From positions 1 to 36,972 of the forward strand of contig CAZDKA010000004.1 in NCBI GenBank assembly GCA_964505815.1: a stretch of DNA of 36,972 nucleotides. The letters are read 5' to 3'. The position numbers and the translations under genes are program-made. The notes beneath the pieces were generated by a model. It saw only the letters and a program-made list of their open reading frames with translations, searched no databases and was not told where the DNA came from. Positions 2,390 through 36,972 of the stretch are shown piece by piece; positions within the stretch are counted from its first letter, which is position 1, and each line of letters begins with the position of its first letter. This DNA comes from an uncultured Candidatus Saccharibacteria bacterium (GTDB lineage Bacteria; Patescibacteriota; Minisyncoccia; Sungbacterales; SURF-37).

Positions 2390-3450
2390 AACGGATTCTT
2401 TGCTCCTCTTACTTCAAAGTGGACATGGCAACCGGTAGAATTGCCGGATGAGCCGATAGTGCCTATGGGCTGGCCCTGGCTAATATTTTGCCCGACTGCG
2501 GCAGAAACCTCTTTGAGGTGGGCGTACAAGGTCTGGGTTCCGTTCGGATGAGTGATAGCAAGATACCTGCCGTATCCGCCGTTCCAACCCTGAGGGCGCG
2601 CGATAATCACGGTTCCGCCGGCCGAGGCCAGAACCGGCAGGCCGCAGGTATTAGCAAGGTCAATTCCGTTGTATCCGTGAATGCCGCGGCTCTTTCTTCC
2701 GCCATCAATGGGGCGGAGATAGTAACCGTCATAGGACGGGTAGCGGTTGATTTCTGCCTGATGGCGCGAAGGCCCTAAGTAGTTCGGGGTCCAGTCAAAC
2801 TCGCCGTCGGGAATAATAAGCGTTGAGCCGACGAGCGGCGGCCCGTCCGGTGAAAGACCGTTGAAAGCCAGAATGTCCTCAATGTTCCCTCTGTATTTTT
2901 TGGCGATGGAGTCAATTGTGTCATTTTTTTTCACTTCAACCTGGACGCCGGATATGGGCAAAACAAGAAGCTTGTCTCCCGGGCGTATGGCCCTGGGATC
3001 GGTCAAGTTGTTTGCCCAAAGAAGGGTATTTAAGCTGACACCGAACGACTTTGCAATTTGCGACGGATTGTCGCCGGGCTTTACCGTATAAATGAAAATC
3101 TGTCCTGCGGCAAACTCATCGGCTATAACTCCGACCGGGTTTAGGGGTGCGGCCAAGGCGCTGTTTTGTACAACGGTAAGCCCTATATCCTCACGCAGTC
3201 CGCCTTTGCCCTCCAGCGGAGGGTTGGGCGTTGAGTCAAGAGCCGGGATAGAAACAGAGGCAAGTGTTTCCTTAATAAAGAACGGCTGTGCCCGTTCTTC
3301 CACGGCTTTTTTTGAAGAATAGCCGAAAAATTCAAACAAATTAGACAAAAATCCGGCCTGGGCCGGACTTGTATTGGGAAACAAAACAAAAAAGCCGATA
3401 AAAACAGTAATAATTGCGGTTTTAGCTCTCACCCCGCACCAATTTTGCAT
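2386..3450 (-). CDS. LysM-domain M23 family metallopeptidase (peptidoglycan DD-endopeptidase)
   Basis: Hydrophobic N-terminus, two LysM repeats (YTVKPGDNPSQIAKSFGVS; VKKNDTIDSIAKKY), M23 motifs HGYNGID, YAHL, GNSTGCHVHFEV. Start likely ATG 3450 or GTG 3432, not 3780. Confidence 0.9.
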   Translation of the reverse strand: MQNWCGVRAKTAIITVFIGFFVLFPNTSPAQAGFLSNLFEFFGYSSKKAVEERAQPFFIKETLASVSIPALDSTPNPPLEGKGGLREDIGLTVVQNSALAAPLNPVGVIADEFAAGQIFIYTVKPGDNPSQIAKSFGVSLNTLLWANNLTDPRAIRPGDKLLVLPISGVQVEVKKNDTIDSIAKKYRGNIEDILAFNGLSPDGPPLVGSTLIIPDGEFDWTPNYLGPSRHQAEINRYPSYDGYYLRPIDGGRKSRGIHGYNGIDLANTCGLPVLASAGGTVIIARPQGWNGGYGRYLAITHPNGTQTLYAHLKEVSAAVGQNISQGQPIGTIGSSGNSTGCHVHFEVRGAKNPF

Positions 3451-3635
3451 GATATTCCATGGCGAAGCGCTTCGCTCATTTAGGGATGCGCTATTCGCGC
3501 ACGCACTTCGCTCACTTTTATCAGTCCATCTGTGGCATCCGTACAGCAAAGCTAACCAAGGCAAAATTGGTACTGGGTTAAGCATTTGTGCCTTCTCAAC
3601 TTCGCCTCCGGCTAGTTTCGAAGACAAATGCTTAA
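3431..3635. repeat. Second copy of the bipartite palindromic element
   Basis: ACCCCGCACCAATTTTGC (3431-3448)...GCAAAATTGGTACTGGGT (3561-3578), then TTAAGCATTTGT (3578-3589)...ACAAATGCTTAA (3624-3635). Confidence 0.7.
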
Positions 3636-3765
3636 AAAAAGCCGAATGCTTCTTTTGTGAAAGAAGCATTTTTGGCATTTTTACTATTTTTTTTGCTATC
3701 CCCAAACCACATACCGAGGTCTTGCCTGATTGGCTGGGGTTATATATCGCTTTAATAGGCATTTT

Positions 3766-4233: not shown

Positions 4234-6198
4234 ATGCCAGAGAGAGACCGCTTACAAGACCCGATCCTGGGTCCCCTTAACGAAAAACAGCGGGAGGCGG
4301 TTACGGCCGTTCACGGCCCTGTATTGATAATTGCCGGCGCCGGCTCGGGCAAAACCAAGGCCCTGACCCACCGCGTGGCTTATCTCGTTTCGCAGGGTGT
4401 GAAGCCCGAAAATATCCTTGCCGTAACCTTCACCAATAAAGCCGCGGACGAGATGCGCAACCGAATACGTGCGCTAACCAACAACCAACAACTAACAACT
4501 AACAACTCGCTATTTGTCGGCACCTTCCACTCTTTTTGCGCATCAGTTCTACGGGCGGAGTATGCGAAAATAGGTTTTCGCAAGAATTTCACTATTTTTG
4601 ACGATGATGATTCTTTATCGCTCGTCAAAGAAGTAATGAGGGGCTTGAACGTTTCTTCCAAACAGTATCAGCCGGGCATGATGGGCCATGTTATATCCGG
4701 TCTGAAAAATCAGCTTATCGGGCCGGAAGAGTATGCATTAGAATACAGCACGGACGTGTTCACCAAAACAGTATCGCGTGTGTATGCCGAGTATCAGAAA
4801 AAACTGAAAGACGCTAATGCTTTTGATTTTGACGATCTTATTATGCAGGTCGTGCTTCTTTTCCGGAAGAGCCCCGACATCCTTGAAAAGTACCAAAATC
4901 ACTATAAATACTTGCATGTTGATGAGTTCCAGGACACTAATCTACCCCAGTATCTCCTGGTGCGGCTGCTTGCCAAAAAACACGGCAATATCTTTGTTAT
5001 TGGGGACGATGGGCAAGCGATTTATGGATGGAGGGGGGCTGATTGGCGGAACATCCTCAATTTTGAGAAGGACTGGCCCGGCGCCAGGGTTATTTTCCTT
5101 GAGCAGAATTACCGCTCAACCAAGACCATTCTTGCGGCCGCCAACCATTTAATCCGCCACAACGCCCTTCAAAAAGAAAAAAATCTGTGGACAGATAACG
5201 CAGATGGCGTCCGGCTTACTTTAAATCTCGTAGAGAACGAACGCCGTGAAGCAGAAGCTATTGCCGAGGAAATCGTGCGGCTCACAAAAGAAGAAAATAA
5301 GCGCCCCGAAGATGTTGCCGTCCTGTATCGCACAAATGCTCAATCCAGAGCGCTGGAAGAAGCGCTGATTGAATATTCGCTGCCTTATGTGATTATCGGC
5401 GGCATAAAATTTTTCCAGCGAAAAGAAATCAAAGATATTGTCGCTTACCTCCGATACCTCGTGAATCCTTCCGACTACGTTTCTCTCAGGCGAATAATCA
5501 ATCTGCCGCCCCGCGGCATTGGCAAAGTCGCTTTCTTGAATTACGTGTCCGGGAAAAAGAAGCTATCCTCTGGAAAAGAAGCTTTAGGGATTGAAAAATT
5601 TGATCATTTGATAGATGCGCTCCGGCGCGAATCGGAAAAACTTACTGCCTCAAAATTCATCAAGGCCCTTCTTCAAAAAATCCGCTACCGCGAATATCTT
5701 GACGACGGCCGAGAATTGGCCCGAGAGCGCTGGGAAAACGTGCAGGAGCTGGTGAGTTTGGCGGCTCACTTTGACGAACTCGGTCAGGAAGGAGGGATAA
5801 CAAAACTTCTGGAAGAAATCGCACTGGTTTCTTTTGAAGACCGGGGAAATCCCGGCGAGCGGGCCCAAGGAAAAACAACCCTGATGACCATGCATGCCGC
5901 CAAAGGCCTTGAGTTCCCGGTTGTATTCATAACCGGCATGGAAGAAGGTATTTTTCCGCATGCGAAATCATTTGCTGATCCGGCCTCGCTTGAAGAAGAG
6001 CGCCGGCTTTGTTACGTGGCTATCACAAGAGCCAAGGAAAAACTTTATCTTTCCCGGGCCTCCAGAAGAATGCTTTTCGGCGAGATACAATCCAATATTC
6101 CTTCGCGCTTTTTGAAAGAAATCCCAGGGGAATGCGTTGAGGTCAAAGAATTGAACGAAGATGATGACTATGAAGACGATGCGTTTATCATCGAATAA
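4234..6198 (+). CDS. pcrA: ATP-dependent DNA helicase PcrA/UvrD
   Basis: IIAGAGSGKT, VTFTNKAA, TFHS, VDEFQDTN, QNYRST, LYRTNAQSR, HAAKGLEF, EERRLCYVAITRAK. Confidence 0.96.
   Translation: MPERDRLQDPILGPLNEKQREAVTAVHGPVLIIAGAGSGKTKALTHRVAYLVSQGVKPENILAVTFTNKAADEMRNRIRALTNNQQLTTNNSLFVGTFHSFCASVLRAEYAKIGFRKNFTIFDDDDSLSLVKEVMRGLNVSSKQYQPGMMGHVISGLKNQLIGPEEYALEYSTDVFTKTVSRVYAEYQKKLKDANAFDFDDLIMQVVLLFRKSPDILEKYQNHYKYLHVDEFQDTNLPQYLLVRLLAKKHGNIFVIGDDGQAIYGWRGADWRNILNFEKDWPGARVIFLEQNYRSTKTILAAANHLIRHNALQKEKNLWTDNADGVRLTLNLVENERREAEAIAEEIVRLTKEENKRPEDVAVLYRTNAQSRALEEALIEYSLPYVIIGGIKFFQRKEIKDIVAYLRYLVNPSDYVSLRRIINLPPRGIGKVAFLNYVSGKKKLSSGKEALGIEKFDHLIDALRRESEKLTASKFIKALLQKIRYREYLDDGRELARERWENVQELVSLAAHFDELGQEGGITKLLEEIALVSFEDRGNPGERAQGKTTLMTMHAAKGLEFPVVFITGMEEGIFPHAKSFADPASLEEERRLCYVAITRAKEKLYLSRASRRMLFGEIQSNIPSRFLKEIPGECVEVKELNEDDDYEDDAFIIE
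4474..4508 (+). repeat. Heptamer tandem repeat (ACAACYA-like x5) inside pcrA
   Basis: CTAACCA ACAACCA ACAACTA ACAACTA ACAACTC; encodes LTNNQQLTTNNS. Confidence 0.75.
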
Positions 6199-9278: not shown

Positions 9279-10723
9279 CTGCTGTATCAAAAAATTTAAA
9301 CCAGCCGGTGGCCATGCTGCTCCTTTTTGTGGTGCTAGGCGGTCTCGTGCTAATACCCTTCACGGCAGAAGCCACTGTTCCCACCATAGACCTTACTCTG
9401 ATCGGCAAGGCTATCCTGCAACTAGCCGAGCTTGTTTTTCAATCCGGACAACTCAGCGCCCTGGTGGTCAAAGAATACGTCCTTGATCCGGCAGTCAAAC
9501 TTCTTGCCGCCATCATGCTGCAAGCCCTCACCCGCACCATCATCGAATGGATTCAGGGCGGAGGGAACACTAATTTTGTTTCAAATCTTCAAGCCGCGCT
9601 CAATCGGGCCGCAGACGAGGCCGCCGGAGAATTTTTGAATTTACTGGCCGGCACAAACTTGTGCGCCCCATTCGCCAATCCCTTGCGCATCACCTTCTTA
9701 AAGCCGCAGCTTAGAGATCGTCTGGCTTGCACTGCGACCGACATTTTCAAGAATCTTCAAACATCCTATGAAAATTTTCTCGCCGACTTCACCAAAGGCG
9801 GCTGGATTGCATACCAGACAACGCTGGTCGGCAACAACAACTATATTGACGCCTTAATTAACGCCTATGACGCAAAAATTAAGGCCGAATCGCGAAGAGT
9901 AACGGTTTTGCAAAACCAGTACCAGGCCGGCCAAGGATTTTTAGGGGTGCGCATTAAAAAGAAAGACTGCACGCAATTTGACCCCGGAGAATTTGAAGAT
10001 TGCCCAACCGTTGACGTTCAGACCACACCCGGCAAGCTGGTGTCCGAACAACTTGCTAAAGTTTTCAATTCCGGCATTGATCAAGCGGTCAACACCGACG
10101 AAATCGGCGAGGCGATTGATGCCATTATCACGGCTCTCATCAGCAAACTAGTATCTTCGGCGCAAGCCGGACTTCTTTCCAATAACGAGTCAAGCGGAAT
10201 ATATGATCCCGGACTCAGCTTGCCAGCCCCGCTGCCATCTCCTCCGCCGCCTCCGGAGCAAATCGCTATTAAAACTGATATTCAAAGAATCGAGGCCGCG
10301 ATCACCCGCGACATTAGTCCTGCGATCGTCTCGGTAAATGCGATCATGCCGCAAATCACCACTGCGCTAAATAGAATTGCCACCTCTTCGCCCTCATTTA
10401 CCGATACGGACATAGTTAGATTGAGAGAAGTCCGCAATCAACTCTTAAATGCATCGGCGGCTCTCGTCACCGCAAAAGATTCTCTCATCTCGATGAGAAA
10501 AGAGCTTGAGAGTATCGACCTGAAAATTTCAGCAATCCTCGCGAACCCCAACGCTGTCCCGGTCGATGATCTTGCCGCGCTTTACTCGCGATCCCGGCAA
10601 ATCAGTCAAAATATTACCGAAGAAGTTAACGATGCAATCACGCCTCGCATAACCAACATCCAAAGTCTTGTCTCCGAAGCGCAAATCCTTATTCCGAAAG
10701 TAAACAATTTGCCGACAACATAA
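9275..10723 (+). CDS. Secreted or membrane hypothetical protein, possibly VirB5-like
   Basis: Signal peptide ending TAEA followed by TVPTID; helical body with Cys pairs, Pro linker and coiled-coil C-terminus; overlaps the upstream stop (ATGA). Confidence 0.7.
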   Translation: MTAVSKNLNQPVAMLLLFVVLGGLVLIPFTAEATVPTIDLTLIGKAILQLAELVFQSGQLSALVVKEYVLDPAVKLLAAIMLQALTRTIIEWIQGGGNTNFVSNLQAALNRAADEAAGEFLNLLAGTNLCAPFANPLRITFLKPQLRDRLACTATDIFKNLQTSYENFLADFTKGGWIAYQTTLVGNNNYIDALINAYDAKIKAESRRVTVLQNQYQAGQGFLGVRIKKKDCTQFDPGEFEDCPTVDVQTTPGKLVSEQLAKVFNSGIDQAVNTDEIGEAIDAIITALISKLVSSAQAGLLSNNESSGIYDPGLSLPAPLPSPPPPPEQIAIKTDIQRIEAAITRDISPAIVSVNAIMPQITTALNRIATSSPSFTDTDIVRLREVRNQLLNASAALVTAKDSLISMRKELESIDLKISAILANPNAVPVDDLAALYSRSRQISQNITEEVNDAITPRITNIQSLVSEAQILIPKVNNLPTT

Positions 10724-10735
10724 AAAGTTAAACGC

Positions 10736-13255
10736 ATGCCTCGCCCGATTCAACAATTTATTAGCGCCATACTTCTCCTGGGGATACTTACTCCGGCTGT
10801 TATACTGATATTCGCACTGCCGCAGGAGACATATGCAGCCGACGTTGATAACTCGCAGGCCGGCAACCGCTCAATTGAAGGACTGGTGGATATTTTGGGC
10901 AGCAAACGCTGCTCGGTTATAAGCGCGCTTCTGTCTCTTGAGTTTGATTGTCTCTTTTTAAGCACTATCTGGATTGTTGATAAATTCTTAGCCGGAACGC
11001 TTCTGAATCTTGCCACAGGAATTTTCGAAGTATCAGTGAAGGCGAATCTTACGGATATCGCCAAGAGTGATTTTGTGACTACAGGCTGGGGAATTGTTCG
11101 CGACATTACCAATCTCTTTTTCATTTTCATCCTCCTTTGGATTGCCCTGGCCACAATCTTCAATATCCAGGGCTACGGCGCAAAAGAACTTCTAGGCCAA
11201 CTGATTGTTGCCGCGCTCCTGATTAATTTCAGTTTAGCCATCGGCGGTTTCTTTATTAATTTTACCAATGCCTTGGGCCGGGCTTTTCTTTCGGGTATTC
11301 CCAGAAGCGGCGCATGTCTTATGGAAAATACCTTATCTTGCGGCATCTCCAACAGACTTCTTGCTTTTGCTGATATCCAAGGGCAAACAATAGTGCCAAT
11401 TGACACGAAGGATCCTTATACAAATTGTGTGAATACTCAAATTGACCTCGGGGCAATAGAAACGGGGGGGAGCGTAGGGGCCTTTCAGGAAAAAGTTCAA
11501 GAGAAATGCGGACAATTCCAGCCGCACACTCAAGAAGCAGTGGAGGTTAACCAAGCCATTCTCAACGCAATCTATCAAGCGCTTTGGCTCATAATTATTA
11601 TTCCCATTCTCTCCTTTGTTTTCTTTGCCGCGGCAATATTTTTCCTCATCCGCTATCTGATGCTTTCTATACTATTGGTGTTTACTCCAATCGTATTTCT
11701 CTTTTGGATTTTGCCGGCTACAAGAAGCCACTGGAACGATTGGTGGAACCGTCTAATTCAGTGGTCTTTTTTTGCCCCGGCTTTTCTTTTCCTGCTTTTC
11801 TTAACAATTATTACTCTTGAGAAACTTTCAATCCTTAATGTGCTCAAAGTCGCTACCAAAGGATTTATTGCTATCGGTTTTGACATGGTTCTCATTATTA
11901 TCTTGATGATTATAAACCTGATGGTGGCGCAGAAAATGGGCATTATGTTTGCCGGATCGGTAATCGGGGTGGGAAGCAAAGTGGCCGGCTGGACCGGCCG
12001 GAAAGTTCGCGGAGCTGCGTATCGCGGAGCAATACGAGGTGTTGCGCCCGCGGCGCAAGAATTCATGAAGACCGGAGTTGCCCAGAGAATGGCCCAAATT
12101 CCGTTTATTCGCGGCCTGACCCAACCAGCAGTGGCTATACAGCAAGAGCGTGAACATCTTGATAAAGAACGCGCAGACAGGGTTCAAAAAGCAATAGGCG
12201 CTATGCCTCCGGAGTTTGCCGCCCAGCGTCTCGCAGGCGAAACGCGCAATGTACAGGAAGCATTCTACAAGTCAGCCCGACCGGATGACATTGAAAAAAT
12301 TATGAGGGGTCTTATGAAAGAAAAGAAAGAAGCAGTGGAAGAGATAGAAGAAACGAGGGAAGTGAAGGATACCGAAGGAAGAACAATCAGGACGGAAACA
12401 GTGGTCAGGCCGAAAGAGGCAAGAGATGTGGCCGGTGTTAAAGAAGTGAAGGATACCGAAGGAAGAACAATCAGGACGGAAACAGTGGTCAGGCCGAAAG
12501 AGGCAAGAGATGTGGCCGGTGTTAAAGAAGTGAAGGATACCGAAGGAAGAACAATCAGGACGGAAACAGTGGTCAGAACAAAAGAAGTGACCACAATAGA
12601 CAAGAGTTCTGCGGAGAAAGAAATAATCAAGATCCGCAATCGCGATCCGAAGCTTGCCGAGCGCATTGAATCCTCGGTAAAAGATCTTCACCTCAAAGTG
12701 GTGGCCAGCAAAGGAGTGATGCTCGGCGAGCCGGTGGCGGAAGCGCAGCGCAGCGCAGAAGATAAACAGCGCTACAGCAACTTCCAAGCCGCGGCAAATG
12801 CATACTTGAACGAGCAGAGCGAGCAGAAACTAAAACAAGTACTCTCGGCAGAAAACCTGAGAATGGAGCAGGTCGGGGAATACATGCTTCAGAATTTCGG
12901 AGCAAGAGAAGCCAAGTCCGTATCTCGAACCACTGAGCAGGTACGAGCTTTTGCCGATACGCTTATGAAAGCGGTGGAAAAGCAAAAGAAAGCTGAATTT
13001 ACTCAGCGCGTGAATGAGCTCCGTACGCAGGGCGTATCAGAAAGCAGTTCTCGCTTCCTCGCTTTCCAGGAACTCGCTCCGCAAGTCATAAAAAACCCCT
13101 CACTCCAAAACTGGATTAGAAGTGCTCCGGGGGTACGCGCAATATATCACGGTAAACCAATCCGAGAGCGCGGCCGGTTGTCTCAATACGAAGCTGGGGG
13201 GGGCGTTGCTCCGCAAGAAGGAAGAGGCGGACCTGTTGGCGGTGGCGGCCCATAA
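10736..13255 (+). CDS. Extended VirB6/TrbL-like polytopic membrane protein
   Basis: Multiple TMs; GWGIVRDITNLFFIFILL, LIVAALLINFS, RYLMLSILLVFTPIVFLFWILP..WNDWW..FFAP; long charged C-terminal tail; VirB4 and PrgI nearby. Confidence 0.7.
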   Translation: MPRPIQQFISAILLLGILTPAVILIFALPQETYAADVDNSQAGNRSIEGLVDILGSKRCSVISALLSLEFDCLFLSTIWIVDKFLAGTLLNLATGIFEVSVKANLTDIAKSDFVTTGWGIVRDITNLFFIFILLWIALATIFNIQGYGAKELLGQLIVAALLINFSLAIGGFFINFTNALGRAFLSGIPRSGACLMENTLSCGISNRLLAFADIQGQTIVPIDTKDPYTNCVNTQIDLGAIETGGSVGAFQEKVQEKCGQFQPHTQEAVEVNQAILNAIYQALWLIIIIPILSFVFFAAAIFFLIRYLMLSILLVFTPIVFLFWILPATRSHWNDWWNRLIQWSFFAPAFLFLLFLTIITLEKLSILNVLKVATKGFIAIGFDMVLIIILMIINLMVAQKMGIMFAGSVIGVGSKVAGWTGRKVRGAAYRGAIRGVAPAAQEFMKTGVAQRMAQIPFIRGLTQPAVAIQQEREHLDKERADRVQKAIGAMPPEFAAQRLAGETRNVQEAFYKSARPDDIEKIMRGLMKEKKEAVEEIEETREVKDTEGRTIRTETVVRPKEARDVAGVKEVKDTEGRTIRTETVVRPKEARDVAGVKEVKDTEGRTIRTETVVRTKEVTTIDKSSAEKEIIKIRNRDPKLAERIESSVKDLHLKVVASKGVMLGEPVAEAQRSAEDKQRYSNFQAAANAYLNEQSEQKLKQVLSAENLRMEQVGEYMLQNFGAREAKSVSRTTEQVRAFADTLMKAVEKQKKAEFTQRVNELRTQGVSESSSRFLAFQELAPQVIKNPSLQNWIRSAPGVRAIYHGKPIRERGRLSQYEAGGGVAPQEGRGGPVGGGGP
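12359..12576 (+). repeat. Perfect 84-bp in-frame tandem repeat (~2.6 copies)
   Basis: Unit starts at 12359, 12443 and 12527; encodes EVKDTEGRTIRTETVVRPKEARDVAGVK. Confidence 0.95.
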
Positions 13256-13771: not shown

Positions 13772-13953
13772 GCCAATGTTGTATAAATTATGAGCGAGCC
13801 CAATGCGAGCGAAATAATTTAGCTACAACATTGAGCACCCTGTTAAATAGCGCTTCGCGCTAATTTTGCGGAGCAAAATTATTTAACAGGGTAAAGGTTT
13901 TGTAACTGAAATTTCGCCGCCTGCGGCTCGAAATTTCAGACAAAGCCCTTTAT
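13771..13953 (+). repeat. Composite ACCCTGTTAAATA-family element, copy 1
   Basis: 56-bp core 13837-13892 with 13-bp TIR ACCCTGTTAAATA/TATTTAACAGGGT; 13816-13900 is the exact reverse complement of 15525-15609. Confidence 0.85.
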
Positions 13954-13973
13954 TATCCACACCTCCAAAAAAC

Positions 13974-14191
13974 GGCGGATTTTTCAATATTTACCTGCGA
14001 GCGACAGCAGGGCGGGAAGCGAGCGGCTGTAAATATTGAACCCTGTACCAATTTTGCCAAAATTTCAGTAAAATTGCCGATTTTAAACCAGTTTACGGCA
14101 AAAGCTCGCGAAGCGCGTGTGCCGAATAGGCACATCCCTGCAATGGGCGAAGCGCTTCGCGTTGGGACAAAACGCAAAATTGGTGTGGGGT
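13974..14191. repeat. ~70-bp palindromic element fused to a ~150-bp ACCC..ACCAATTTTGC element
   Basis: 13974-14043 resembles 3766-3838; 14040-14191 has TIRs like 3431-3578 and shares GCGAAGCGCTTCGC. Confidence 0.65.
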
Positions 14192-14291: not shown

Positions 14292-14369
14292 TGACTTACA
14301 ACCTACAACTAACAACCCGCAACAAAAGGGGGATTTGCCAGTAGTTAGTCGTCAGTCGTTAGTCATTAG
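14292..14369. repeat. Heptamer-arm palindrome
   Basis: ACAACCT/ACAACTA-type arm opposed by AGTCGTT/AGTCGTC-type arm. Confidence 0.6.
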
Positions 14370-14380
14370 CCACACCGGGT

Positions 14381-15475
14381 ATGCCCCAAACACTACAATC
14401 CCCGCGAAATAACCAAATTGACGAAGAAACCATATTAAAGCGCTACGATTCTCTTCCCGATGACCTCAAAGAGGCGCTTATGGATGTATCCACAGCGGAC
14501 GCGATTTATGAAATCGGACGGAAAGCCAACTTAGACGTGGAAAAAATCGGCTTGCTCGCCGAAGAAATAGGCCTGATAATTTTGGGGTTTATCCCATCGG
14601 AAAACTTCATATCAGACCTAAAAAGGGTTCTGGAAATAGGCGAGGAAAAGGCCTCGTCCGTAGCCCTTGAAGTAAACGACCGGATTTTTCTACCAATACG
14701 CGAATCGCTGAAAAGAATTCATGGCGCAGCATGGGCTGAAGGCATTACCAGGACTCCGCTCAAAACTCTGGGTCCTGTGGTTGTCGAAAAAAAACCAGCG
14801 CCGCCAATTGCTGAAATCAAACCTGAAGCAACTGCAAAACCATTGGCGCGAACAGAAGAAAAAATCCCGCAAGCGCCATTTAGGCCTCCTCCAGCGCCGG
14901 CTCCCAAAGAACCGCTTTTGATCCGCCCAATGGGAGGAGTACCTGGCGCCCCGATAACAAAAGAACCTTTTGTCAAAGCAATGCAGCAGCCGACTACTCT
15001 GCCTCCTGCTCCTCCGCCAATCCCTCGCATTCCGGCGCCCGCGGTTAAACCGCCTGAAAAAACAGCCCCACCTCCGCCAACTCGCGGACTTACAGCAGAG
15101 AAGAAACCTTTTGAAATCCGTCCTCCGGGTTTTCCATACCAGCCGCCCAGACCACCTGAAGTAAAAACTCATCTGGCTCCGGCAGCTAAATCGTTAACAC
15201 CGCCCCTTCCCGAAGTAAAATTTCCTCCGCCGCCCGCTGTATCAAAAACCTTTGAAACCATAAAAGTGCCTCCGCCGCCGAAACTACCGGTCGAGGAAAA
15301 GCCGGCCACAGCGCAGCCGAAACACCCGCCCCAAGAGAACGCCGCTCCCCAGGGAGCGAGTCTCACTCCAGCGGAGCGGGAGGCTCGCTCAATAAAATTG
15401 AGCGGCAAAATCCAGGTTCCGCCCCCGCCGCCGCGGCAGGCCGGCCTTGACCCGTACCGCGAACCAGTTGAATAA
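14381..15475 (+). CDS. Hypothetical protein: helical N-domain, Pro-rich linker, C-terminal DPYREP motif
   Basis: 364-aa ORF; ~115-aa globular N-terminus, then very Pro-rich, ending LDPYREPVE. Confidence 0.8.
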   Translation: MPQTLQSPRNNQIDEETILKRYDSLPDDLKEALMDVSTADAIYEIGRKANLDVEKIGLLAEEIGLIILGFIPSENFISDLKRVLEIGEEKASSVALEVNDRIFLPIRESLKRIHGAAWAEGITRTPLKTLGPVVVEKKPAPPIAEIKPEATAKPLARTEEKIPQAPFRPPPAPAPKEPLLIRPMGGVPGAPITKEPFVKAMQQPTTLPPAPPPIPRIPAPAVKPPEKTAPPPPTRGLTAEKKPFEIRPPGFPYQPPRPPEVKTHLAPAAKSLTPPLPEVKFPPPPAVSKTFETIKVPPPPKLPVEEKPATAQPKHPPQENAAPQGASLTPAEREARSIKLSGKIQVPPPPPRQAGLDPYREPVE

Positions 15476-15648
15476 AGGGCTTGGCCTGCGATTTCGAGCC
15501 GCAGGCGAAAAAATCGCAGCTGACAAACCTTTACCCTGTTAAATAATTTTGCTCCGCAAAATTAGCGCGAAGCGCTATTTAACAGGGTGCTCAATGTTGT
15601 AGCTAAATTTGCTGCACATTGAGCTTGCAAATTTAGACAACATTGGCA
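15471..15648 (-). repeat. Composite ACCCTGTTAAATA-family element, copy 2 (inverted)
   Basis: Reverse complement of 13771-13953; runs from the TAA at 15473 to the ATG at 15648. Confidence 0.85.
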
Positions 15649-16058: not shown

Positions 16059-16061
16059 CGC

Positions 16062-16176
16062 CAACTTACAACTAACAACTTACAACCCACAACTCTTCAT
16101 GACATATGGCCCGCGACTTACAACTCATAACAAATCCACAGCGCGTTGTCCGTTGTTAGTTGTTTGTTGTTAGTTA
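16062..16176. repeat. Heptamer-arm palindrome
   Basis: ACAACTA/ACAACTT arm...GTTGTTA/GTTGTTT arm fills the intergenic gap. Confidence 0.65.
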
Positions 16177-18800: not shown

Positions 18801-18909
18801 GTTTTTAGTTAATAGTTATTAGTTTTAGTTTAAAGTTATTGGTTTTGGTTACGTTTCGAAAAACTATAACTAAAAAACAGAAAACTTAAACCAAAAACCA
18901 ATAACTAAG
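18801..18909. repeat. Heptamer/hexamer-arm palindrome
   Basis: AGTTTTT/AGTTAAT/AGTTATT arm...AACTAAA/AACCAAA/AACCAAT arm. Confidence 0.65.
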
Positions 18910-18934
18910 AACAAGGCATTTAAATAAAATTCGC

Positions 18935-19504: not shown

Positions 19505-19790
19505 GGCATCCCAAAAATTTTCTAGAACTCCGATTTTTACAAATGGAGTGATACTCAGCATGCCGTTTATTTTTCTCGCCTATTTCTTTTAGAAAATCGC
19601 TTCGCGATTTTCACGCCCAAGGATCCCAAATTTGCCTCCTCGGCAAATTCCTGGGCTCCGCCGAGCTAAGCTCGGCTCCGCCCGTCGCAAAGCTATTAAA
19701 ACGCTTTGCGACCCAGCCCGATGAAAAATAAACGGCATGCCTCGCTTACCATGATACAAAATCTCCGTAATAGAAAATTTTTGGAATGCC
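19505..19790. repeat. Nested inverted-repeat element
   Basis: Outer IR 19505-19524/19771-19790 (1 mismatch); inner perfect 18-bp IR 19558-19575/19723-19740; contains a 65-bp unit (19615-19679) repeated at 36908-36972. Confidence 0.75.
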
Positions 19791-22467: not shown

Positions 22468-22578
22468 CTAACGACAAACAACTTACGACTCACAACAAAA
22501 CGCCGAGATCAAAACGCCCGGCGTTTGTTGTTTTTGATTAATCGTCAGTCGTTAGTCGTCAGTTGTTGGTCGTTAGTC
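22466..22578. repeat. Heptamer-arm palindrome between convergent genes
   Basis: AACTAACGACAAACAACTTACGACT...AGTCGTTAGTCGTCAGTTGTTGGTCGTTAGT. Confidence 0.65.
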
Positions 22579-22580
22579 AA

Positions 22581-32858: not shown

Positions 32859-33332
32859 TTAAAAATTTTTTGTATGGATCGCAGTCAAGGCAATGGCCAT
32901 GGCATCGGCGATGTCGTCAAGTTCGGGCACTTGCGCTAGTTTCAGGATGGTTTTTACCATCTCTTTGACCTGACGCTTGTCGGCTTTGCCGTAGCCGGTG
33001 ACCGCCACCTTGACTTCGCCAGGAGTATACTCAGAGACCCTAATTGATAGCTCTTTTGCAGTCAAGAGCAGGACTCCTCTGGCCTCGGCCACCGAGAGCG
33101 CTGTCTTTATATTCTTGGAAAAGAAAATTTTTTCAAGAGCGATCAAGTCGGGCCTGTGGATATCTATCAGTCCGCGCATGCCTCTTGCGATTTCCAGAAG
33201 TCGGCTCTCTTTTTCCTTGGATGAAGGGCGTATGGCTCCGCTTCTCAAAAGCTCGGTGTCGCCGCCTTCGGTTTTTTTAAGCACGGCATATCCAATTATG
33301 GCCGTACCCGGATCAATGCCTAAGATAATCAT
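32859..33332 (-). CDS. ruvC: Holliday junction resolvase RuvC
   Basis: ILGIDPG, ALEKIFFSKN, EARGV, EYTP.EVK.AVTGYGKADK, DDIADAMAIA. Confidence 0.97.
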   Translation of the reverse strand: MIILGIDPGTAIIGYAVLKKTEGGDTELLRSGAIRPSSKEKESRLLEIARGMRGLIDIHRPDLIALEKIFFSKNIKTALSVAEARGVLLLTAKELSIRVSEYTPGEVKVAVTGYGKADKRQVKEMVKTILKLAQVPELDDIADAMAIALTAIHTKNF

Positions 33333-33430
33333 TTGGTCTTTGGTTGTTAGTTTTTAGTTATAGTTTTCAGTTATTGATTTTAGTTTAACTAAAACCAGGA
33401 ACAAAAAACCAAAACTGGAAACCAATAACT
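33332..33430. repeat. Heptamer/hexamer-arm palindrome
   Basis: GGTCTTT/GGTTGTT/AGTTTTT arm...AACTAA/AACCAGG/AACCAAT arm. Confidence 0.6.
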
Positions 33431-33446
33431 GAGAACCTTCATACGA

Positions 33447-34184: not shown

Positions 34185-34248
34185 AATTATGGAATTAAGA
34201 ATTATGAATACAAACGCGGCATTATTCTTAATTCGTTATTCATAATTC
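34185..34248. repeat. Heptamer-arm palindrome
   Basis: GAATTATGGAATTAAGAATTATGAAT...ATTCTTAATTCGTTATTCATAATTC. Confidence 0.6.
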
Positions 34249-34766
34249 TGTTTTTGAATTTGTTGCAGCGGTTGTTGGTGTGCGTATTTGAGAATAAGAT
34301 CTTTGGCCCTATACATATCCGGCACGTCACGGATGATGAACGTTGACTGCGAGGCCGTCTCCACCTTCAGATTTCCAAAACGGAGCACGGTTGAAATAAA
34401 CCCGGGAACCTCCATTGTAACGTTCTGGACTTTGCTCATCGGAAGCTCCGAGATCGTGCGCGAGAAAAGACCGCGCTGTTCAATATCTACGAGGCGCTTG
34501 TCGGTGATAATCCAGACATCCAGATAGTAGTCGGTCCAGACGATGAATGCGTAAAGCAAAAGCCCCAAAACATAAATGGTTAAAACGAAGTAGGCCGCCG
34601 ACCGGATTTCCGGCTTGAGTAGATAAAAACCGAGTGTCTGGGCGAGGTACAAAAGGACAAAGGGAATAAATACCAGCGAACCCAACACCGCGGCGTGTCT
34701 TGTCAGGGCGTACCAGTGACGGCGGATGACCATTAATATTTGCTCCTTGGGCTCAAGCGTTATCAT
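34236..34766 (-). CDS. Bacterial PH-domain membrane protein
   Basis: RRHW, two TMs, WIITDKRLVDIEQRGLFSR, KVQNV, FGNLKVETA. Confidence 0.85.
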   Translation of the reverse strand: MITLEPKEQILMVIRRHWYALTRHAAVLGSLVFIPFVLLYLAQTLGFYLLKPEIRSAAYFVLTIYVLGLLLYAFIVWTDYYLDVWIITDKRLVDIEQRGLFSRTISELPMSKVQNVTMEVPGFISTVLRFGNLKVETASQSTFIIRDVPDMYRAKDLILKYAHQQPLQQIQKQNYE

Positions 34767-35149
34767 GCTAATTTTCTCAGCGAGGCGAGCGATTTCGCTC
34801 GCGAAGCCGAGCTGTTAGAAAATTCAGCACCCTGTTAAATAAGATTTGAGGCGCTTCTTTAAAAACATCTTACCAAAATGGGTTTTAAAATACTTTTCTC
34901 TTCGCATGGCGTCTTTTCGACTCAAGCCGGCTTCATAATATATCAATTTTAGCGGCCGCCTGCTTTTTGTTGCCGGCACGCGTCCTTTTTGATGTTCCTC
35001 AAATCTTAATTTTATCCTGTTAAATAAAATCTTTGATTTTCTTTTGCTTAAAGCAAAAGATTTAACAGGATAAAATTATTTAACAGGGTAAAGGTTTTCT
35101 AGCTAAAATTTGTTCGCCTTTGGCTCCAAATTTTAGAGAAAGCCCTTTA
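34764..35149 (+). mobile_element. Composite ACCCTGTTAAATA-family element carrying a GIY-YIG nuclease remnant
   Basis: TIRs at 34829-34841 and 35077-35089; nested 19-bp IR 35007-35025/35060-35078; flanks shared with 35349-35512. Confidence 0.65.
34824..35009 (-). pseudogene. 5'-truncated GIY-YIG (UPF0213-like) endonuclease
   Basis: Hand translation LRFEEHQKGRVPATKSRRPLKLIYYEAGLSRKDAMRREKYFKTHFGKMFLKKRLKSYLTGC*; has the R..H..G, TK.RRP.KL.YYE and A..RE..K motifs; no start codon or N-terminal GIY/YIG strands. Confidence 0.8.
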
Positions 35150-35351
35150 ACTGGTTCCAGGGAGTGATTAAAAAGAAGTAAGCGGCCAGGATAAATAATA
35201 TCGCTGAGAGCAGGAGAAAAGCGGGCATGACTACTTTGACAGCGCTCCATCCCGGCAGGGTGTATTGATACAGATGATAAAAAACCGCCGCGGTCAGCAG
35301 TATGTAGCCGAGAGCGAAGAAGACAAATAGTCCGCCGAAAATTGCAAACAT
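35133..35351 (-). CDS. Small two-TM membrane protein
   Basis: 72 aa, two hydrophobic helices, YHLYQY loop. Confidence 0.65.
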   Translation of the reverse strand: MFAIFGGLFVFFALGYILLTAAVFYHLYQYTLPGWSAVKVVMPAFLLLSAILFILAAYFFLITPWNQLKGFL

Positions 35352-35512
35352 GCGAATTTTATTTACGAGCGTTAGCGAATAACTATAAAATTCAGCACCC
35401 TGTTAAATAGCGCTTCGCGCTAATTTTGCGGAGCAAAATTATTTAACAGGGTAAAGGTTTTCTAGCTAAAATTTGTTCGCCTCCAGCTCCAAATTTTAGA
35501 GAAAGCCCTTTA
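35349..35512 (+). repeat. Composite ACCCTGTTAAATA-family element, empty copy
   Basis: 35394-35461 is identical to 13834-13901; right flank nearly identical to 35072-35149. Confidence 0.85.
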
Positions 35513-36907: not shown

Positions 36908-36972
36908 GCCCAGGGATCCCAAATTTGCCCCCTCGGCAAATTCCTGGGCTCCGCCGAGCTAAGCTCGGCTCC
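36908..36972 (+). repeat. 65-bp palindromic unit, truncated by the window end
   Basis: 63/65 identical to 19615-19679. Confidence 0.85.

Follow-up and report, generated by a model that had tools for sequence, protein, structure and literature searches.

The contig analysed here (GenBank CAZDKA010000004.1; 36,972 nucleotides (nt), hereafter the window) is contig C4 of a 104-contig, 1.0-Mb assembly of an uncultured Candidatus Saccharibacteria bacterium, a genome that we label G000. At positions 34829-35089 it carries a cassette copy that is dead; in the compact full form, about 290 bp long, one single-domain GIY-YIG nuclease gene of 84-88 amino acids, from a clade whose proteins end in ...RLKSYLTG, sits in a palindromic scaffold of three stems. 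The stems fold together into a three-way junction, and the 56-bp elements found elsewhere in the window, hereafter cores, are this junction after loss of its two coding loops. Cassettes and cores are the middle modules of mosaic intergenic hairpin arrays, which resemble bacterial interspersed mosaic elements (BIMEs) and, in this genome, occupy the entire spacer, stop codon to start codon, of neighbouring genes that point the same way.

Anatomy of the cassette and its cores

The outer repeat is a 13-mer, ACCCTGTTAAATA, which occurs nine times in the window when at most one mismatch is allowed, against 0.01 occurrences expected (none of 100 shuffles reached nine). Inverted pairs of it, 43 nt apart, delimit three elements of 56 bp at 13837-13892, 35397-35452 and, in the opposite orientation, 15533-15588, whose inner 30 nt are identical; a fourth inverted pair spans the 261 bp of 34829-35089. 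An earlier note on this DNA, made by a model from the letters alone, had reported three identical 56-bp cores and one longer copy bounded by one repeat, and our scan found them as described. The features that make up the cassette copy and the cores are as follows.

34829-35089, minus strand: truncated GIY-YIG cassette, outer arm to outer arm, 261 bp; identical at 261/261 positions to G000:C26:10394-10654
34824-35009, minus strand: C-terminal GIY-YIG fragment, 61 codons plus a TGA stop (from translation and the PF01541 match)
34829-34841, no strand: outer repeat arm at the 3' end of the gene; the minus strand encodes S-Y-L-T-G (codons TAT TTA ACA GGG T)
34841-35007, minus strand: C module within the inner inverted repeat IR-C, arms 34841-34851 and 34997-35007 (codons RLKS and LRFE)
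35009-35076, minus strand: nested hairpin, arms 35009-35025 and 35060-35076, repeat-like ATCCTGTTAAAT; slot of the lost N-terminal module
35077-35089, no strand: outer repeat arm on the 5' side of the gene (13-mer scan)
13837-13892, minus strand: empty 56-bp core (13-mer pair)
15533-15588, plus strand: empty 56-bp core, orientation reversed (13-mer pair)
35397-35452, minus strand: empty 56-bp core, a miniature three-way junction (DNA fold)

The longer copy holds an unannotated frame, with the minus-strand translation LRFEEHQKGRVPATKSRRPLKLIYYEAGLSRKDAMRREKYFKTHFGKMFLKKRLKSYLTGC (starting LRFEEHQKG and ending KRLKSYLTGC), and its last codons are indeed the repeat arm at 34829-34841, as the earlier note had read them. 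The sole significant Pfam match of this fragment is GIY-YIG, PF01541 (E 2.6e-6, 28.1 bits against a cut-off of 22.6), the family that had been proposed. Because the match covers only positions 26-74 of the 78 of the profile, with positions 1-21 missing, the GIY and YIG motifs are absent from the window copy, which amounts to the C-terminal two thirds of the nuclease. It is 77% identical to residues 22-86 of the intact protein of G005, a genome of the same family and another genus. The N-terminal slot, which in an intact copy holds the 5' untranslated region and residues 1-25, is occupied by a hairpin; the nested related hairpin of the earlier note is thus real, with arms lying at 35009-35025 and 35060-35076 and not at the 35007-35078 that it had given.

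An intact version of the gene, encoding 88 amino acids (aa), lies in G000 at C49:4353-4642 (PF01541, 50.7 bits, profile positions 2-71). It is bounded by ACCCGGTTAAATA and TATTTAACCGGGT, the same repeat with a compensated change on both arms (ACCCGG.../...CCGGGT). G000 has three copies of the cassette gene, two of them dead; the second truncated copy, C26:10394-10654, has outer flanks different from those of the window copy. Other GIY-YIG genes of the same genome encode a UvrC-like protein and proteins of 91 aa (on C72) and 85 aa (on C19). Intact copies of the cassette gene have the GIY and YIG motifs and the conserved Arg and Glu, two residues with catalytic roles, and their ATG lies 21-46 nt downstream of the outer repeat arm. 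Inner stem 1 encloses the 5' untranslated region and residues 1-25, and its right arm consists of the codons for N-L-K-L; inner stem 2 encloses the rest of the gene, with arms made of the codons for LRFE and RLKS; the gene ends in codons that make up the right outer arm. In a DNA fold of the intact element, the outer and the two inner stems form a three-way junction (z -5.54), and the 56-nt core forms the same junction with three-base loops (-19.8 kcal/mol, z -7.19).

Complete cores number 24 in G000, and contig ends cut three more. Their inner 30 nt are identical in 16 of the 24, with one change in seven and two changes in one. Each core is the middle module, in fixed orientation, of an array of about 133-139 nt that has another hairpin on either side, and the interiors of these flanking hairpins vary. 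The left hairpin is of several types, most often GAATTTT...AAAATTC followed by AGC, and the right one is AAAGGTTT...AAGCCCTTTA. In the sense of the gene, the array extends from the upstream stop codon (TAAAGGG in 13 of 24) to the downstream ATG (AAAATTCGCATG in 12 of 24), with a large open reading frame (ORF) nearby upstream of 18 of the 24 cores and downstream of 20. The inventory of the earlier note was right for the copies in the window; it missed the arrays, the genome-wide copies with the intact gene among them, and the two further inverted repeats inside the gene.

Relatives, covariation and insertion into genes

Scanning species-representative genomes with protein alignment A1, in which Y5 V6 Y7, Y18 G20, R28, H32, Y50 Y51 E52 and R63 E64 are invariant, gave 449 relatives. 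We kept the best 80 of these 449 loci, which cover only the closest clade and carry 82 tblastn gene matches. They span, among others, Patescibacteria groups, Desulfobacterota, Thermodesulfobacteriota, Bdellovibrionales, Bacteroidota genera, Verrucomicrobia, Scalindua, Thermotogaceae, Atribacteria, Chloroflexota, Elusimicrobia and Cloacimonadota, with identities of 58-73%. The proteins are bare single domains of 84-89 aa (84 aa in 47 of the 78 with the canonical repeat), and the elements measure 274-328 bp, with a median of 290. An inverted repeat of at least 12 nt joins the upstream region to the gene end in 80 of 82 matches, against 7 of 79 in a control with the right window shifted by 400 nt. 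The best inverted repeat contains the core motif of the repeat in 78 of the 82, and the intact copy of G000 has it in the compensated variant, an association that the earlier note had proposed to look for. A tblastn search against plasmids returned only four weak homologues. A separate observation comes from a Paceibacterota record (L047), where two near-identical GIY-YIG cassettes, at 1462-1753 and 1960-2251, lie 498 bp apart, each with its own ACCCCGTGAAGTAA repeat.

The stems covary in alignment A2 (83 rows, 82 distinct). Over three helices with 34 pairs, 90.9% of cells are paired (91.1% in helix 3, the stem of IR-C). Both partners have changed in 204 cells, compared with 56 +/- 8.3 in shuffles, none of 500 reaching 204, and with 25-70 when the partners were slid by 1-3 columns; relatedness is not removed by the shuffle control and is removed by the slid one. 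The N stem illustrates the pattern, as it falls into two groups, in one of which TTTTAAAT pairs with ATTTAAAA and in the other GCTTGAGG with CCTCAAGC: the coding arm varies synonymously, encoding N-L-K-L in both, and the non-coding arm changes to match. G-U cells (79) show no excess over A-C cells (99) and neither strand is favoured, which argues for pairing of DNA rather than of sense-strand RNA. The stems are thus under selection for pairing, probably as DNA. Rfam offers no family for cores or cassettes at the gathering threshold or at E <= 0.1, and these searches revealed no intron around the cassette gene. A match to a Brucella small RNA (E 0.058) was dismissed as chance.

Some copies interrupt protein genes. 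The two halves of a PF05635 (23S_rRNA_IVP) gene, profile positions 1-45 and 49-105/106, flank the cassette in L012, L015, L060 and L037, and the split thus falls at positions 45|49 in all four loci tested. At two other loci a PDDEXK_3 gene lies to the left of the cassette, interrupted at position 83 (L022) and 27 (L027). The genome behind L060 has ten PF05635 matches, namely six whole genes and the four halves of two split ones, so that two of eight genes are split. The paralogues read D-N-I-A-E-G at the insertion site, where about 2-3 codons have been replaced, with an ambiguous boundary. Judged from these split genes, insertion of the cassette is real. Many other copies lie a few bases from the stop or start codon of a neighbour. 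Of 72 loci, both neighbours run in the direction of the cassette in 39 and both in the opposite direction in 6.

One site is available in both filled and empty form, as expected if the empty copies stem from gene-bearing ones. Upstream of rpsP, G005 has the intact gene, then hairpin A (one of the two flanking hairpins, the other being hairpin B), then AAAATTCGC-ATG, and the orthologous site of G000 (C52) has an empty core, hairpin A and the same junction. Intermediates also exist. A further genome, G111, has an intact gene (71% identity) together with cores of the G000 type, an 88-bp form whose three stems have their original sequences while the loops are tiny, and another of 140 bp in which the N loop alone has collapsed; a 146-bp element of G005 consists of the N module only. 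The left flank of the G000 cores retains the Cys and stop codons of the local gene type, and the miniatures are still perfect palindromes. The central inference of the earlier note, that the empty copies derive from a GIY-YIG element, is well supported by these sequence comparisons, which make the cores loop-deleted miniatures of the cassette of about 290 bp.

The stretch of the window is also contained in four groundwater sequencing runs of one study (X1-X4). In run X3, a contig of 321 nt (depth 9.66) matches 35094-35376 without difference and continues leftward with 8 other letters and then 30 nt ending at 34824, the whole 261-bp element being absent. This is a hint of a presence/absence allele, in which the left side is 30 nt long and lies within a repeated hairpin. 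Other joints in run contigs, among them those that lead from 34859, 34876, 34865 or 35014 to 35071 or 34987, match over 21-28 nt on a side and come probably from other copies or organisms.

Spread of the units: known systems, a proposed mechanism and alternatives

The concept of a GIY-YIG nuclease paired with hairpin repeats is already published (PMC11893778, Chenal et al. 2025). SsnA is a 94-aa single-domain GIY-YIG protein of family cd10448, which cuts only single-stranded DNA (ssDNA), beside NTS hairpins present in hundreds of copies. In that study the SRM motif occurs nearby in 71% of homologues and on both sides in 42%. The Discussion of that paper likens NTS-ssnA-NTS to an insertion sequence, to IS200/IS605 and to repetitive extragenic palindromes (REPs) with their associated tyrosine transposases (RAYTs) and BIMEs; the earlier note, which knew of no description and drew the REP/RAYT analogy itself, has thus been overtaken on both counts. 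In the literature we found no description of a GIY-YIG cassette that encloses its gene in a hairpin with codon-embedded stems, or of its miniatures; the Ssn paper reports the sole like system, and its Supplementary Data 3-5 may list the clade. What the cassette adds is its architecture, a different motif, stems that are conserved and covary across phyla, its insertion into genes, and a site known in both the filled and the miniature state.

Both systems combine a single-domain GIY-YIG protein of about 90 aa with an associated inverted-repeat hairpin that is dispersed in the genome and expanded in some lineages only. They differ in that our gene lies inside one hairpin, whose arms are at least 250 nt apart, whereas the Ssn gene lies between separate small hairpins; in that the cassette has three stems made partly of the gene's own codons; and in that it is found inserted in protein genes. 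Moreover, the SRM motif, as given in the Methods of PMC11893778, does not describe the repeat of the cassette: it has no match in the core and four in G000, against 0-7 in ten simulations, and the positive control L091 shows four matches around its gene. The protein of an Azospirillum plasmid gene with four flanking SRM matches is 37% identical to that of the cassette (46.6 bits), and a Sphingomonas plasmid homologue has no SRM match. The label "UPF0213-like" given by the earlier note proved weak. Closeness to UPF0213 or YhbQ was rejected, as E. coli YhbQ gives no BLASTP alignment at E <= 100 and the UPF0213 proteins of the PDB score only 26.1 (BH0048) and 19.6 bits to the cassette protein. 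NCBIfam returned only sub-threshold matches to group I intron endonucleases and UvrC, which are uninformative.

Other systems share part of this design. RAYTs are domesticated Y1 transposases of the IS200/IS605 type, and REPs, BIMEs and RAYTs have in common with our arrays the short intergenic palindromes, the mosaic arrangement, the cognate nuclease gene bracketed by the repeat and a presumed action on a folded single strand. Their enzyme is of the HUH/Y1 type, whereas that of the cassette is a GIY-YIG hydrolase whose gene is itself part of the palindrome. Neither a Y1 transposase (PF01797, 0 matches, with matches in 6 of 14 control genomes) nor TnpB was found in G000. GIY-YIG homing endonuclease genes, such as those of I-TevI and the Seg proteins, have the same catalytic fold. 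Like them, the cassette uses one conserved site in a target family (position 45|49 of PF05635 at four loci, with uninterrupted paralogues in the same genome), shows co-conversion-like identity past the element and is distributed patchily across phyla. Unlike them, it has terminal inverted repeats and gene-less miniatures, and its protein comes without a DNA-binding extension and without an intron. Miniature inverted-repeat transposable elements, for example the Correia elements of Neisseria, are, like the cores, short intergenic elements that lack genes, end in inverted repeats and have multiplied within a lineage; the cores differ from them in having a parent that encodes a nuclease instead of a DDE transposase and in conserving an internal three-way junction, and no target-site duplication was evident when the flanks of the 80 loci were read by eye.

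Small GIY-YIG ORFs in structured RNA genes have also been reported from genomes of the Candidate Phyla Radiation (CPR), in non-intron insertions at the tops or bases of stem-loops of rRNA genes (bioRxiv 10.1101/2024.02.27.582315). In the accessible part of that preprint the term inverted repeat occurs 0 times, no miniatures are reported and GIY-YIG is placed outside homing. G000 has a case of this kind. An RNase P RNA of class A at L008:1201-1859 (G000:C19, about 10575-11233; model positions 1-367, 86.8 bits, E 1.7e-26, below the gathering score of 100) has in one helix an insertion of about 251 nt, which holds the 85-aa GIY-YIG gene; arms of 17 bp, CCCCCCACCACTTTTAT and ATAAAAGTGGTGGGGGG, bracket this gene, with the stop codon in the arm.

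The explanation that we favour as a whole, and consider probable though far from assured, is that of a junction-folding GIY-YIG cassette with loop-deleted miniatures and copying driven by the nuclease. Mobilisation by the enzyme is what we infer by analogy. The nuclease would be supplied by an intact copy, here the one on C49; as proposed from its Ssn relatives, it would recognise the folded junction on ssDNA and nick beside it. The nick could then provoke the copying of a filled or miniature unit to another site, whether one array repairs from another as in homing or the folded unit itself enters new sites. Slippage promoted by the hairpins would remove the coding loops, and the resulting miniatures would retain the recognition scaffold and rely on the nuclease in trans.

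Several observations weigh against this explanation. No target-site duplication was seen by eye in the flanks of the 80 loci, nor in the comparison of PF05635 paralogues. The reaction of GIY-YIG enzymes is hydrolysis of DNA, with no joining step, and integration would thus need host functions. The two truncated copies of G000 stay identical for 26-27 nt past the repeat arms on each side before they diverge, so that copying by recombination, like co-conversion, seems to fit them better than clean end-to-end transposition. The rpsP-upstream array is common to two genera, so that some units must be old and vertically inherited. More distant homologues carry the repeat less regularly: among 12 of their loci in the phylum sample, four have this or a related repeat, four have another repeat of 11-15 nt and the remaining four only background repeats of 8-9 nt.

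The number of copies is a further difficulty. We used one sample of 41 genomes from the family and order and another of 301 from the phylum. Exact repeat pairs occur in 2 of the 41. Among the 301, GIY-YIG homologues (E <= 1e-8) are present in 151, often in several copies. A degenerate 12-mer of the repeat is found 55 times in G000, 9 times in G111, 5 in G125 and 4 in G076, and at most 3 times in the others, as in the control. This census is noisy, single matches being no commoner than those of the reversed-pattern control, and only counts of at least 4 were interpreted; since it misses variants of the repeat, as in G111, copy numbers outside G000 are lower bounds. A core signature of 19-20 nt occurs in 5 of the 301 genomes, 26 times in G000, twice in G111 and once each in G052, G076 and G198 (control 0). 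Taken together, these counts indicate that the expansion is peculiar to G000, one genome of the 301 sampled, and that gene presence predicts copy number poorly; the correlation between them, which the earlier note had proposed to examine, is only weak.

One alternative is a domesticated system of Ssn type, in which the hairpins would be cis sites kept by the host, the nuclease would cut ssDNA bearing them (e.g., DNA incoming during uptake), and the elements would be immobile, their number set by host selection. The SsnA of Neisseria cuts ssDNA beside NTS hairpins and modulates transformation (PMC11893778), the Azospirillum protein flanked by four SRM hairpins is 37% identical to that of the cassette, the cores are fixed in orientation and nearly invariant in sequence, and the array upstream of rpsP is conserved in two genera. 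Yet a cassette that splits protein genes and whose surroundings differ from phylum to phylum looks like a parasite and not like a host tool, the dispersed hairpins are absent from most gene-bearing genomes, and the majority of the gene copies of G000 are dead. We regard domestication as unlikely.

Less likely again, and in our opinion quite improbable, is that the stems act in RNA. The arrays would then be intergenic mRNA structures that process, stabilise or terminate transcripts, the junction around the gene would govern translation of that gene or shield it within operons, and the GIY-YIG gene would be a passenger of the loop. The arrays do occupy operon spacers, as the flanking ORFs and start codons counted above show, cassettes tend to share the direction of their neighbours, and other GIY-YIG ORFs lie in the RNase P RNA helix and, as reported, in non-intron insertions of CPR rRNA. 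However, helices of RNA usually show the G-U excess that is missing here, neither cores nor cassettes match an Rfam family, and the miniatures stay perfect palindromes; the repeat moreover stays with the gene when this enters coding sequences, a setting in which the host would hardly use it as RNA. Reverse causality, with hairpins as older host repeats spread by recombination or slippage, the GIY-YIG gene as a homing-type invader of their loops and cores as uninvaded targets, would agree with the different GIY-YIG gene whose "repeat" is a helix of RNase P, with the other repeat families that fill the same slot between hairpins A and B, and with the homing-like identity past the arms, but we hold it to be very improbable, as a conserved protein is encoded by the right arm and by part of both inner stems, all kept across phyla without such host repeats, the forms of 88 to 146 bp keep gene-derived stems or gene fragments, and the left flank of the cores keeps the Cys and stop codons of the local gene type.

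With this cassette, the pairing of a bare GIY-YIG nuclease with a hairpin repeat extends to a clade of many phyla, in a very economical form where codons would double as recognition scaffold. The cassette also provides direct genomic evidence that was lacking for Ssn, namely that the unit inserts into genes and that repeats without a gene descend from those that have one. The 56-nt junction, well defined, and its cognate 88-aa enzyme are now available for biochemistry and may serve as a structure-specific ssDNA tool. In a bolder reading, which we put forward tentatively and with some doubt, no autonomous mobile DNA so far known from bacteria would be smaller than that of the ...RLKSYLTG clade. 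The cassette, of about 290 bp, would encode a single 84-aa nuclease that recognises a three-way junction made of the cassette's own codons; it would pass from one phylum to another, enter other small selfish gene families and structured RNA genes at conserved sites, and spawn loop-deleted miniatures, Ssn/NTS being domesticated or rearranged relatives of this ancestral parasite.

Hairpin arrays and other repeats of the genome

The hairpins around the units of the window, none of which was assigned a strand, are these:

34770-34824: flanking hairpin A of the cassette copy; ends next to the ATG of a 176-aa gene at 34236-34766
35090-35148: flanking hairpin B (AAAGGTTTT...AAAGCCCTTT); gives the last codons LKGFL* of a 72-aa ORF
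35354-35393: hairpin A of the 35397 array; adjoins the ATG of the 72-aa ORF (AAAATTCGCATG, minus strand)
35453-35511: hairpin B of the 35397 array; gives the last codons LKGFL* of RuvB
13774-13951: whole array of the 13837 core, with an A-type hairpin (13774-13833), the core and hairpin B (13893-13951)
15474-15609: array of the 15533 core, with hairpin B (15474-15532), the core and the start of an A-type hairpin; 91% complementary to 13816-13954

These arrays affect the genes that they adjoin. LKGFL*, encoded by the outer arm of hairpin B, ends both RuvB (35496-35512) and the 72-aa membrane ORF (35133-35149). The C-termini of RuvB differ in four relatives, and the two orthologous spacers of G005 measure 108 and 27 nt and are devoid of such arrays. 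To judge from this comparison, arrays have replaced the native C-terminal and stop codons of host genes. Some of the hairpin arrays that crowd the intergenic spacers of this small CPR-type genome, and that alter the C-terminal ends of adjacent proteins, are explained by the cassette.

Palindromes other than those of the GIY-YIG cassette can also fill the slot between hairpins A and B, which begin with ACCC and end with GGGT, such as ACCC(A/G)CCCAA(A/G)TTTTTGG...CCAAAAA(C/T)TTGGGCGGG(G)T at G000:C3:28948-29146 and G000:C10:4307-4489. A sister repeat family, CCCCGTTAGAT...ATCTAACGGGG, accounts for about 25 small or mid-sized hairpins of G000 (e.g., C17:1286-1323, C80:2558-2595 and C28:9764-9866), with hairpins of 30-42 bp and elements of 95-103 bp, some nested in hairpin B. 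Its arms would encode Y-L-T-G by other codons, as in L071 and L087, and equal the repeat of other GIY-YIG subtypes (L071, L100); an intact cognate gene for it was not found in G000.

The window contains further repeats. A family GGCAAAATTGGTRCGGGGT..., unrelated to the GIY-YIG repeat, is intergenic and occurs in direct and inverted copies at 2314-2391, 3560-3637, 3431-3480, 14031-14058, 14142-14191 and 2193-2232. A 65-nt repeat of stacked small palindromes is present at 19615-19679 and 36908-36972 (97% identical), the second copy reaching the end of the window. Periodic words rich in A and C (G and T on the other strand), for example ACAACTAACAAC, lie near gene boundaries at 4470-4511, 14298-14372, 16061-16176, 18803-18912, 22471-22579 and 33332-33436. 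Finally, an 84-bp unit is repeated three times in tandem at 12359-12610, two units being identical and the third 74% alike, and is probably a repeat within a coding region.

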